DNA from: Escherichia phage alpha3
Direction: 5' to 3' (one strand)
Length of the DNA: 6,087 bases
Sequence record: NC_001330.1
The translations under genes and the position numbers were made by a program. How positions within the stretch are numbered: the first letter of the stretch is position 1; each line of letters opens with the position of its first letter. This document shows, one piece after another, positions 1 through 5,094 of this stretch. The notes beneath the pieces were generated by a model, which did not search any database, had not been told where the DNA came from, and saw only the letters and a program-made list of their open reading frames with translations.

Positions 1-26
1 TTGTTGACATTCCCTAAACCCTTATG

Positions 27-65
27 AGACTCTTGCTTCAACGAAACGAAGTAGGAGTCTTTTTT
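27..65 (+). terminator. Candidate stem-loop plus T-run immediately downstream of gene H (across the circular junction)
   Basis: Seen in sequence: 27-39 (agactcttgcttc) pairs with 48-60 (gaagtaggagtct), a 13-bp stem including 2 G-U pairs, with an 8-nt loop (40-47) followed by TTTTT (61-65). The stem is AU-rich, so it is probably weak. The right arm contains the AGGAG ribosome-binding site of the ORF starting at 66. Confidence 0.3.
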
Positions 66-209
66 ATGAAACCAGCTCATCGCCTCTATCATCCTGTGCT
101 TGGTTCTTGGTTGTTTAAGTGCCCCGTTTATGTTCGTTATGAGTCCCTTCATCACGGTCGCCTCATTAAGGTTCGTGCTGTTCGTGACCTTTCCCGCGTC
201 AGCAGTTGA
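66..209 (+). CDS. Hypothetical small basic protein (47 aa; 61 aa if the upstream in-frame ATG at 24 is used), H-A region ORF1
   Basis: ATG at 66 preceded by AGGAG (53-57) with an 8-nt spacer. Product MKPAHRLYHPVLGSWLFKCPVYVRYESLHHGRLIKVRAVRDLSRVSS is rich in R/K/H. About half the codons end in T (hand count ~25/47), matching the bias of the known genes. Stop TGA 207-209 overlaps the TTG at 206 of the next ORF. No homolog recognised. Confidence 0.4.
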   Translation: MKPAHRLYHPVLGSWLFKCPVYVRYESLHHGRLIKVRAVRDLSRVSS

Positions 210-433
210 TTGCCAATCCTAAAAATTGCTTTGACGTTGTCATTGCTGAGATTGACGTTACTCACCTTTCTGTCACTTGGTATGATTTTGAAGCTGAAGA
301 GTATGCTGAGTGTGATTCCGGCACTATGGAGCTTGTTGTTTCTCAGGTAAATTCTGGCGAGGTTATTCGCTCATCTGAAGACCTGTTTGTTGATGTTGAT
401 GATATGGAATGGCCTTATGAAATTGCGGAGTAA
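206..433 (+). CDS. Hypothetical acidic protein (75 aa from TTG 206; 35 aa if it starts at ATG 326), H-A region ORF2
   Basis: Open frame from TTG 206 (TTGA overlap with the ORF1 stop) to TAA 431-433. Product is strongly acidic (many D/E, e.g. DLFVDVDDMEWPYEIAE). Frame-specific T-ending codons are about 41/75 by hand count, versus about 10/41 in the +1 frame of the same stretch. No clear ribosome-binding site before 206 or 326, so the start is uncertain and translation may be coupled to ORF1. Confidence 0.4.
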   Translation: MIANPKNCFDVVIAEIDVTHLSVTWYDFEAEEYAECDSGTMELVVSQVNSGEVIRSSEDLFVDVDDMEWPYEIAE

Positions 434-436
434 GTC

Positions 437-526
437 ATGGAAACTGTTATCGGAAAATTTATTGCTCTGGCTATTGTTGCTCTTATGCTGTATGGAATTG
501 CCTGTTTGATTCGGAGGTTTCCGTGA
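437..526 (+). CDS. Hypothetical 29-aa hydrophobic peptide (single predicted transmembrane helix), H-A region ORF3
   Basis: ATG 437 preceded by GGAG (427-430) with a 6-nt spacer, 3 nt after the ORF2 stop. Product METVIGKFIALAIVALMLYGIACLIRRFP, stop TGA 524-526. About 15/29 codons end in T. Too short for the supplied ORF track. No homolog recognised. Confidence 0.35.
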   Translation: METVIGKFIALAIVALMLYGIACLIRRFP

Positions 527-699
527 AATATTTTAGTTTGGTAGATGAACATTATGCTTACTGCCCTGATACAAGGATTTTGCACATTACTCGTAGTCGT
601 GTTTCTGACCCTCGGTATGAGCGTCGCTTTCTTACTGATGAGGAGCATTTTGCACTTTTGGATTGGTTAAAAAATCGCCCAACTTACATTAATTCTTGA
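523..699 (+). CDS. Hypothetical 58-aa protein with GTG start, H-A region ORF4
   Basis: GTG 523-525 overlaps the ORF3 stop (GTGA) and is preceded by GGAGG (513-517) with a 5-nt spacer. Product (M)KYFSLVDEHYAYCPDTRILHITRSRVSDPRYERRFLTDEEHFALLDWLKNRPTYINS. About 33/58 codons end in T. Stop TGA 697-699 lies inside the -35 hexamer of the gene A promoter. Not in the supplied ORF track. Confidence 0.4.
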   Translation: MKYFSLVDEHYAYCPDTRILHITRSRVSDPRYERRFLTDEEHFALLDWLKNRPTYINS

Positions 700-725
700 C
701 AGACCTTTAAAATACCCTCTATATT
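696..725 (+). promoter_or_regulatory. Sigma70-type promoter for gene A (pA analog)
   Basis: Perfect -35 TTGACA (696-701), 18-nt spacer, -10 TATATT (720-725), about 35 nt upstream of the A start codon. Position matches pA in the phiX174 H-A spacer. Predicted start site around 732-733. Confidence 0.6.
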
Positions 726-755
726 GCCCTCATAGTTTCACTACGAGGGCTTTTT
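726..755 (+). terminator. Rho-independent terminator-like hairpin in the H-A spacer / gene A leader (TH analog)
   Basis: GCCCTC (726-731) pairs with GAGGGC (745-750); an inner 3-bp helix 733-735/741-743 is possible; followed by TTTTT (751-755). The right arm contains the gene A ribosome-binding site GAGGG (745-749). Confidence 0.5.
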
Positions 756-2502: not shown

Positions 2503-2955
2503 ATGAATATTGTTTCTGATGTTAATTACGCTACTTCCGTTGCTGCTCTTCGCATGTTGCAGGCTAGTGCTGTTTTGGATGTTACTGAGGAAGATTTCGA
2601 TTTTCTGACTGGTGATAAGATTTGGATTGCTACCGACCGTAACCGTGCGCGTCGTTGTGTTGAGGCTTGTGTTTATGGAACGCTGGACTTTGTTGGATAT
2701 CCTCGCTTTCCTGCTCCTGTTGAGTTTATTGCTGCCGTCATTGCTTATTATGTTCATCCCGTCAATGTACAAACAGCATGCCTCGTTATGGAAGGCGCGG
2801 AGTTTAGCGAAAACATTATCAATGGCGTCGAGCGCCCGGTTAACGCCGCTGAGCTCTTCGCGTACACCCTGCGTATTAAAGCAGGATTCAAAGAAACTGT
2901 AATGGATGCCGAGGAAAATGCTCGTCAGAAATTACGCGCAAATGGACTGAAGTGA
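2503..2955 (+). CDS. D: External scaffolding protein D, 150 aa
   Basis: Near-identity over long stretches with phiX174 D (ASAVLD.TE.DFDFLT..K.WIATDR.RARRCVEACVYGTLDFVGYPRFPAPVEFIAAVIAYYVHPVN). AAGGAG (2491-2496) with a 6-nt spacer. The track ORF begins at an upstream TTG 2473. Confidence 0.95.
   Translation: MNIVSDVNYATSVAALRMLQASAVLDVTEEDFDFLTGDKIWIATDRNRARRCVEACVYGTLDFVGYPRFPAPVEFIAAVIAYYVHPVNVQTACLVMEGAEFSENIINGVERPVNAAELFAYTLRIKAGFKETVMDAEENARQKLRANGLK
2675..2902 (+). CDS. E: Lysis protein E (MraY inhibitor), 75 aa, overprinted in the +1 frame of D
   Basis: MERWTLLDILAFLLLLSLLLPSLLIMFIPS is almost identical to the phiX174 E transmembrane domain (MVRWTLWDTLAFLLLLSLLLPSLLIMFIPS), including the conserved proline. 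GAGG (2662-2665) 9 nt upstream. The track extends it to GTG 2612. Confidence 0.9.
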   Translation: MERWTLLDILAFLLLLSLLLPSLLIMFIPSMYKQHASLWKARSLAKTLSMASSARLTPLSSSRTPCVLKQDSKKL

Positions 2956-4959: not shown

Positions 4960-4984
4960 AAGGCTGCCGCACTCCCGGTTAGAT

Positions 4985-5069
4985 GCCTGCCCAGTGTAGG
5001 GCAGACCGAGCCGTACGGAGATACCCGATAAACTAGGAACGTGGAAGGCGTTAGCCGCCTTCCCTCCTG
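4985..5069 (+). other. Putative complementary (-) strand origin: primase (DnaG) recognition region in the G-H spacer
   Basis: The 135-nt G-H spacer contains a 6-bp hairpin CTGCCC/GGGCAG (4987-5004, loop AGTGTA), the palindrome CCGTACGG (5011-5018), and an 8-bp hairpin GGAAGGCG/CGCCTTCC (5043-5063, loop TTAGC) followed 4 nt later by CTG (5067-5069). G4-type origins are hairpins with a 5'-CTG-3' primer start on their 3' side. Confidence 0.45.
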
Positions 5070-5094
5070 CTAAGCCCAAAAAGGAGTTACAGCG

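Follow-up and report, generated by a model that had tools for sequence, protein, structure and literature searches.

A conserved 29-codon reading frame in the H–A region of coliphage alpha3, a candidate membrane micro-protein gene that may be read in two frames

The region between genes H and A of coliphage alpha3 (Microviridae, Bullavirinae, Alphatrevirus) contains a 29-codon open reading frame (ORF), here called ORF2, at positions 437..526 of the plus strand of record NC_001330.1. [quoted passage not shown] ORF2 thus lies within the long H–A 'intergenic' region that sets alpha3-like phages apart from phiX174 and G4. It is very probably a real gene, and we put at roughly even odds (a probability of about 0.5) the fuller reading that it is a genuine small gene of an Alphatrevirus-specific accessory cassette filling the H–A region, that its product is an accessory membrane micro-protein, and that its DNA is likely dual coding. 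Comparison of related phages shows that ORF2 retains its frame, its start codon and its predicted hydrophobic character throughout the genus and also in one divergent relative. Moreover, the DNA of ORF2 codons 1–24 is under a constraint that is explained neither by ORF2 alone nor by the overlapping +1 frame alone.

ORF2 starts with the ATG at 437, ends with the TGA at 524–526 and would encode the 29-amino-acid (aa) peptide METVIGKFIALAIVALMLYGIACLIRRFP. A Shine-Dalgarno motif, GGAG (427..430, plus strand), is located inside the last codons of the upstream gene ORF1 and is separated from the ATG by a spacer of 6 nt; the TAA stop codon of ORF1 (431–433) precedes the same ATG by 3 nt. These elements had been described in an earlier reading of the letters without database searches (the sequence-only reading), and all of them are found in the sequence. 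The ribosome-binding site proposed there is credible not only for its motif and spacing but also because GGAG is annotated as such in the older partial record M25640. That ORF2 had been missed by the ORF track merely follows from a length threshold; gene callers applied to public assemblies routinely call it.

The hydrophobic single-helix architecture assigned to the peptide is equally predicted by two scales. Residues 8–25 (FIALAIVALMLYGIACLI; 458..511, plus strand) make up an apolar, putative transmembrane core of 18 residues, for which about 20 had been given, which averages 2.8 on the Kyte-Doolittle scale (17 residues) and whose Hessa insertion energies add up to -3.3 kcal/mol; both values are near those of the transmembrane segment of alpha3 gpE. 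The only proline of ORF2 is its last residue, and none is present in the helix. A comparable hydrophobic stretch occurs, however, in 7 of the 19 small plus-strand ORFs of the window, and in 2 of the 7 ATG-initiated ORFs of 25–60 aa that have a Shine-Dalgarno motif. In a T-rich genome with such a base rate, hydrophobicity alone is weak evidence and does not exceed chance expectation; ORF2 is raised above chance because its frame and ATG are conserved.

Conservation was assessed in three samples, namely the H–A region of 14 other GenBank alpha3-like genomes, ten complete genomes that form the basis of the third-position diversity tests, and additional contigs from Logan, ENA, IMG/VR and JGI. Judging from cluster sizes, Logan and ENA contain hundreds of alpha3-like contigs. 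ORF2 is intact at 28–30 codons, with ATG and frame retained, in all of about 30 distinct alpha3-like sequences, comprising 15 GenBank genomes and every one of the additional contigs; in the set of 14 GenBank genomes the frame was scored as present with the same stop column in 13–14. When 22 distinct sequences had been compared, codons 1–25 showed 20 nucleotide state changes, all of them outside codon position 2; in an enlarged set that includes the tail of the divergent contig L057, 5 of 34 affected this position. Replacements in residues 1–21 are limited to I/V, F/L, A/V and M/I, and positions 22–23 at the C-terminal edge of the core are more variable (S/A/T/V/Y and R/C, respectively). In contig L057 (Logan SRR20337160, 820–1475), ORF2 residues 1–21 are 100% identical to those of alpha3 with four synonymous differences, and ORF3, the gene downstream, is 93% identical, at amino acid identities of 86% for gpH, 80% for gpA and 35% for ORF1. 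This points either to very rapid evolution of ORF1 or to a mosaic cassette.

Beyond the alpha3 clade the frame was not detected. A tblastn search with ORF2 among 50,697 phage records matched 25 records, all of them alpha3-like, and the frame is absent from phiX174- and G4-like phages. A host origin of the cassette was rejected, as blastn gave no match of bases 60–700 in 5,426 E. coli genomes. Lack of conservation in related phages had been named by the sequence-only reading as an observation that would speak against the gene; ORF2 survives this objection because its frame is kept in all relatives and its ribosome-binding site in most, L057 and a few variants of the motif being dealt with below. 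The basic C-terminus (RRFP) emphasized in that reading is present in alpha3 but fared less well, as the tail varies among relatives (RRFP, SRTLK, DRTLR, SRT). It appears to be largely imposed by the initiation signals of the 58-aa ORF3, because the AGG codon of Arg27 is part of the GGAGG/AGGA Shine-Dalgarno motif of ORF3 and A-rich bases precede the ORF3 start codon.

The candidate for a second coding frame is an overlapping +1-frame ORF (417..509, plus strand), which reads MKLRSKSWKLLSENLLLWLLLLLCCMELPV from an invariant ATG at 417 and covers ORF2 codons 1–24; when started from a TTG it is listed as 387..509. This frame is open in all 14 GenBank genomes, and its stop codon always occupies the same column (window 507–509). 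A ribosome-binding site, GGA (406–408), is marked in M25640 upstream of ATG417, and the +1 frame has no good Shine-Dalgarno motif. No slippery motif for a programmed +1 frameshift from ORF1 into this frame was recognized at GAG-TAA, a junction judged by inspection only.

In the ten complete genomes, third positions of ORF2 codons 2–21 have a diversity of 0.020 as compared to a codon-matched expectation of about 0.237, which is approximately 12-fold lower (P<5e-5) and below the value of all 1436 twenty-codon windows of singly-coding genes (mean 0.246). Synonymous variants of ORF2 are rarer than replacement variants (Mann-Whitney p=0.004) and are mostly singletons; variants at first positions (I/V, F/L) are common. 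The constraint has a 3-nt period, with first positions of ORF2 varying at 8 of 21 codons and at high frequency and positions 2 and 3 being frozen. The first positions of ORF2 correspond to the wobble sites of the +1 frame, and its third positions to +1-frame second positions. The +1 frame in turn deviates from the behaviour of a singly-coding gene. First positions of its leucine codons are frozen because ORF2 needs T at position 2 (observed diversity 0 versus 0.171 expected; P<1e-4, or 0.004 with local diversity halved), and its wobble diversity of 0.128 is about half of the expected 0.282 (P=2e-4). Transitions that are silent in the +1 frame were seen at 8 of 12 sites where they are benign for ORF2 and at 1 of 8 where they are radical for ORF2 (Fisher one-sided p=0.025).

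Each single-frame model fails at about 0.004–0.03 under any uniform reduction of local diversity. The low diversity cannot be put down solely to a local sweep or to recombination, since no single scaling factor fits either frame alone. The known overlaps of the same genomes served as positive controls and gave the same signature as ORF2 (third-position diversity.010 versus.289 for the E frame and 0 versus.275 for the B frame), whereas no such suppression was seen in the negative controls, genes F and H. Relative to single-coding genes of these genomes, synonymous variation is thus suppressed in both frames. Given the 3-nt period, the lack of support for an RNA structure and the misfit of each single frame, constraint in both frames is the best reading, and the substitution pattern provides evidence of selection at the protein level on ORF2 that is separate from the overlapping frame. 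We tentatively extend this to the view that 437–509 is an uncharacterised nested overlapping pair in which two hydrophobic peptides of about 30 residues, derived from 70 nt, are both under purifying selection. If true, a classical model phage family, whose set of genes is commonly regarded as complete, would gain a fourth overlap as well as two membrane micro-proteins. Two single-base mutations would separate the frames: 452 G>T creates a TGA stop at ORF2 Gly6 (GGA) without altering the +1-frame serine (TCG>TCT), and 448 T>A converts a +1-frame TTA into a TAA stop and leaves the ORF2 valine unchanged (GTT>GTA).

ORF2 is the middle member of a trio of stop-start-coupled genes, ORF1 (122 aa), ORF2 (29 aa) and ORF3 (58 aa), that is confined to Alphatrevirus. 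The junctions linking the three are TAA-3 nt-ATG and then GTGA or ATGA. ORF1 (66..433, plus strand), whose product comprises 122 aa in DQ085810.2 and 11 other genomes, shows a coding-type diversity by codon position (.143/.099/.316), and its AlphaFold2 model with a predicted local distance difference test (pLDDT) score of 91 displays a beta-rich domain, for which a structural neighbour search found no match. ORF3 (523..699, plus strand) is preceded by a GGAGG Shine-Dalgarno motif at 513–517, within ORF2 codons 26–27, and starts with a GTG that overlaps the ORF2 stop codon (GTGA). It is supported by its sequence, by an annotated ribosome-binding site and by coding-type diversity (.058/.023/.185); its model (pLDDT 73) had no significant match in the PDB. 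A second group of relatives has a rebuilt ORF2/ORF3 junction overlapping as ATGA instead of GTGA, and the coupling geometry is retained in both junction types. Homologues of ORF1 and ORF3 outside the genus were not found in a word-indexed search, and a full HMMER profile search of 1.84 billion representatives returned three matches, all in the same family. As none of the three proteins has detectable relatives outside the genus, the neighbourhood yields no functional lead.

The upstream boundary of the cassette is marked by a terminator-like hairpin with a T-run just after gene H (26..61, plus strand). Its 3' arm sequesters the Shine-Dalgarno motif AGGAG of ORF1 (53–57), and the hairpin could be a switch between termination and ORF1 translation. 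An invariant TTGACA at 4–9, just past the gene H stop codon, may form a weak promoter together with GAGACT at 26–31 (16-nt spacer). The downstream boundary is marked by a near-consensus σ70 promoter-like site, TTGACA-18-TATATT (696..725, plus strand), before gene A. Phage NC35 (L007) lacks 29 nt (window 703–731) covering the -10 box TATATT of this site, which implies that transcription of gene A can begin further upstream and pass through the ORF1–ORF3 cassette. Variation within ORF1 includes a 1-nt deletion near 228 in St-1 (L006, GQ149088), which leaves a truncated product of 94 aa with ORF2 and ORF3 intact and which, if real and not a sequencing error, would make ORF1 dispensable in a laboratory phage. 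In two contigs (L017/L018; ENA ERZ17996440 and Logan SRR11183723) ORF1 comprises 154 aa owing to a 32-residue N-terminal extension, MKPLTSSEI...

Two further open frames of the region were discarded. A minus-strand ORF (415..648) has a non-coding codon-position pattern, its position 2 coinciding with the most variable sites. A hydrophobic ORF of 41–43 aa (545..670), out of frame within ORF3, is open in 14 of 14 genomes and shows no sign of selection; because ORF3 third positions vary normally across it, it is treated as spurious and is probably an artefact of composition. Outside the cassette, the genome has the gene set A, B, K, C, D, E, J, F, G and H. The G–H intergenic region (4961–5094) is GC-rich and contains several hairpins, for example GCCTGCCCAGTGTAGGGCAGA and GGAAGGCGTTAGCCGCCTTCC, with no matching Rfam model. 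This region harbours the primase-dependent complementary-strand origin of alpha3, St-1 and phiK.

Positions 1–760 of the window are 99.6% identical to DQ085810.2, the re-sequenced alpha3 genome, and 100% identical to M25640. Relative to DQ085810.2 the window lacks one C in a run near 193, which splits the 122-aa ORF1 (66..434 in the corrected sequence) into 24..209 and 206..433. In addition, window positions 334–339 read CTTGTTGTT, where all relatives read CTTCTTCTT. The missing C (~190–195) and the difference at 334–339 are probably errors of the old sequence.

Several observations weigh against the view of ORF2 as a translated, dual-coding gene of an accessory cassette. The case for its translation is made from sequence, and its function is wholly inferred, as none of the cassette proteins has a homologue, a domain or a structural neighbour that provides a clue. 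The Shine-Dalgarno motif is not universal, being GGAG in most sequences, GGGG in NC3 and L021 and GGAA in L049, and it is missing in L057, where the junction reads TAAATG with 0 nt between the ORF1 stop codon and the ATG. The conserved Arg27 and the basic tail can be by-products of the ORF3 initiation region. The location of the cassette downstream of a terminator-like hairpin means that expression could be low, and the apparent truncation of ORF1 in St-1 implies that part of the cassette may be dispensable. The statistics derive from about 25 codons in 10–30 related, recombining genomes, so that neither sites nor sequences are independent. Dual coding in particular is challenged by the 3-nt ORF1–ORF2 spacer, which is inside the +1 frame and is the most variable spot, and by viable phages whose +1 frame has undergone L>P, S>L and P>L changes. 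Finally, pN/pS amounts to 0.11–0.17 in the +1 frame versus 0.36–0.42 in the ORF2 frame, so that the +1 frame would seem to dominate if only substitutions were considered.

The latter comparison also speaks for an explanation that we consider unlikely, namely that only the +1 frame ending at 509 is functional and that the open frame of ORF2 is a by-product whose hydrophobic codons (NTN) are forced by the Leu-rich +1 frame (TTN/CTN). This model would account for the frozen synonymous sites of ORF2, for the identity of the +1 peptide core in 11 of 25 distinct DNA sequences, and for the fact that the rare second-position changes in ORF2, V4A and A12V, are silent in the +1 frame; +1-frame positions 2 and 3 even match expectation once local diversity is halved. 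It is at odds, however, with the lack of a proper Shine-Dalgarno motif for a frame whose only fixed start, ATG417, is embedded in conserved Tyr-Glu codons of ORF1, with the spacer as the most variable spot, which causes S/L and K/N changes in the +1 frame, and with ORF2-silent changes in the viable isolate Lilleven and in L057 by which the +1 peptide acquires L>P, S>L, W>L and P>L. Likewise, Leu codons of the +1 frame vary less at their first positions than expected for a single frame (P=0.004–0.018 even with reduced diversity), and there is avoidance of changes to which the +1 frame is indifferent but which would be radical in ORF2 (p=0.025). Conversely, ORF2 might be the sole coding frame, with its synonymous sites kept constant by an element acting as nucleic acid, for instance a structure in RNA or single-stranded DNA (ssDNA), a site bound by a protein or a sequence of the replication 'reduction' type. 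The low diversity over ~391–495, which includes the end of ORF1, would fit such an element, and so would the potential of the ORF2 start to pair with the ORF3 start region in alpha3 (CAUGGAAAC with GUUUCCGUG). Yet the majority TTCCCG variant disrupts that pairing and ATGA-type junctions lack it, RNAalifold yields a weak consensus for 29 sequences that has no convincing covariation, the single-sequence folding z-score is 0.18, and no match was found in Rfam. We regard this explanation as improbable mainly because the constraint is 3-periodic, with first positions of ORF2 varying at 8 of 21 codons, a period to which an unstructured element would not give rise.

A role of ORF2 in membrane damage or lysis, whether as a type I-like toxin, as a holin- or antiholin-like modulator of gpE lysis or as a superinfection-exclusion factor, was favoured by the sequence-only reading and appears doubtful. 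Size and hydrophobicity do resemble TisB-class toxins and small phage membrane factors, and restriction to one genus is frequently seen for accessory host-interaction genes. No family, fold or context supports any of these roles, though. ORF2 had no significant match in Pfam, PHROG, NCBIfam or PADLOC; its best PHROG matches were phrog_4546 (E=0.024, unknown function) and phrog_12443 (E=0.27), and PADLOC gave none, leaving exclusion factors without a described family to which the peptide could be assigned. With respect to type I toxins, ORF2 shares the small hydrophobic membrane peptide but is not part of an antisense or stand-alone toxin-antitoxin locus, and the only promoter-like site on the minus strand of positions 1–900 is a weak one at 243–216. 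Alpha3 transcribes one strand only. Holins possess at least one transmembrane domain plus a charged cytoplasmic C-terminal domain and are typically at least 60 aa long, far above the 29 aa of ORF2, whose variable tail of four residues shrinks to SRT in ID32. A domain search detected no lysin domain in the cassette proteins, and the gene set of the genome contains no endolysin that might be a holin partner. ORF2 lacks a BLASTP alignment to gpE and a proline in its helix, and it occupies a different locus that is not embedded in gene D. The evolution of earlier lysis in ST-1, which occurred without change in the cassette region (PMC3324380), also speaks against modulation of lysis. Finally, it is very improbable that neither small frame is expressed and that a conserved untranslated linker between ORF1 and ORF3 accidentally carries open frames owing to its T-richness. 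The high base rate of hydrophobic small ORFs and the conserved open frame 545..670 without sign of selection could be taken in favour of this idea, but a linker would neither be constrained with a 3-nt period to the same degree as the known D/E and A/B overlaps nor retain ATG, frame and stop-start junctions throughout about 30 sequences that represent two junction architectures.

Returning to ORF2 as an accessory membrane micro-protein gene, we propose that its translation would depend on coupling to ORF1 termination together with its own GGAG, and that the product may insert as a single helix into the inner membrane. The positive-inside rule would favour an orientation with the short N-terminus (METVIGK) outside and the basic tail inside. 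The peptide could then serve as a non-structural accessory factor via helix-helix contact with a host or phage membrane protein, and a function as pore-former, holin or lysis protein is improbable. Most likely, the same DNA would also code for a second hydrophobic peptide of about 30 aa in the +1 frame, giving a nested pair like A/B or D/E. The cassette is probably expressed by read-through of late transcripts or from a weak promoter at the conserved TTGACA (4–9). Should the ORF2 peptide target a membrane protein of the host, it would rank among the smallest phage host-interaction factors.

ORF2 is not an overlooked feature. M25640 already annotates ribosome-binding sites before ORF1, ORF2 (427–430), ORF3 and the +1-frame ATG417, and the genome of phage Lilleven contains the 29-aa ORF2 as a coding sequence for a hypothetical protein (QBZ71503.1). 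Conserved reading frames in the H–A region of alpha3/WA13-like phages were reported in 2006 (Rokyta 2006, as cited by Wichman and Brown 2010, PMC2935103, and in PMC3324380); in PMC2935103 and PMC3324380 these frames come with no expression evidence, function or selection analysis. Our independent count in 14 GenBank genomes yielded exactly five conserved plus-strand frames with a minimum length of 25 aa, which end at DQ085810.2 positions 434, 510, 527, 671 and 700. The agreement in number leads us to infer that ORF2, which stops at 527, is one of the five frames of Rokyta 2006, as presumably is 545..670. Chantranupong and Heineman (2012; PMC3324380) mention an additional region carrying putative genes in ST-1 and found no mutation there as lysis time evolved to be shorter. 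The finding of ORF2 is thus a re-discovery of an annotated hypothetical ORF and of low novelty, given that it was already a reported conserved frame of unknown function. What is added here is selection evidence for each frame, a nested-overlap signature and the two frame-separating single-base mutations. The selection evidence sorts the five frames, supporting ORF1, ORF2, ORF3 and probably the +1 frame but not 545..670. The Bullavirinae are textbook minimal phages, and the annotation of phiX174 was declared complete by synthesis (PMC6883844); the alpha3 genus bears some 700 extra bases with genes that have been without an assigned function since 2006.

Overlapping genes of the Bullavirinae are a close precedent for the arrangement proposed here. 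In B inside A and E inside D the codon-position signature is the same, with frozen third positions of the embedded frame and reduced wobble variation of the other frame. ORF2 would relate to the +1 frame as B does to A and, as in the case of E, one partner would be a hydrophobic helix. Unlike in A/B and D/E, both partners are only about 30 aa long, both are hydrophobic, both products are predicted ones, and the +1 frame has no clear start signal. gpE itself (window 2675..2902), encoded in the same genome, is also a small phage protein with an N-terminal transmembrane helix, but ORF2 differs from it by the lack of alignable similarity, of a helix proline and of a long basic C-terminal domain and by its locus.

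Other systems resemble ORF2 in size. Among type I toxins, TisB (29 aa), Ibs and Ldr are similar in length and hydrophobicity, but helices of the TisB type are amphipathic and charged, whereas that of ORF2 is uniformly apolar, and ORF2 has no antisense RNA or toxin-antitoxin organisation and would be co-translated within a phage operon. The pVII and pIX proteins of inoviruses (32–33 aa) are virion cap proteins of filamentous phages assembled at the membrane. Like ORF2 they are tiny hydrophobic proteins of ssDNA phages with overlapping stop-start junctions, and their own ribosome-binding sites are weak. Unlike filamentous phages, microviruses assemble their capsids in the cytoplasm and, to our knowledge, no proteins other than F, G, H and J are present in solved alpha3 virions. 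In bacteria, larger membrane proteins are regulated by single-pass membrane micro-proteins, which include KdpF (29 aa), PmrR (29 aa), MgtR (30 aa), AcrZ (49 aa) and MgrB (47 aa). No sequence relationship exists between these proteins and ORF2, which stems from a lytic ssDNA phage, but they have in common the small size, a single hydrophobic helix, short charged ends and the lack of a recognisable domain. By analogy, regulation of a membrane protein in the manner of such micro-proteins is the most likely mode of action of ORF2.

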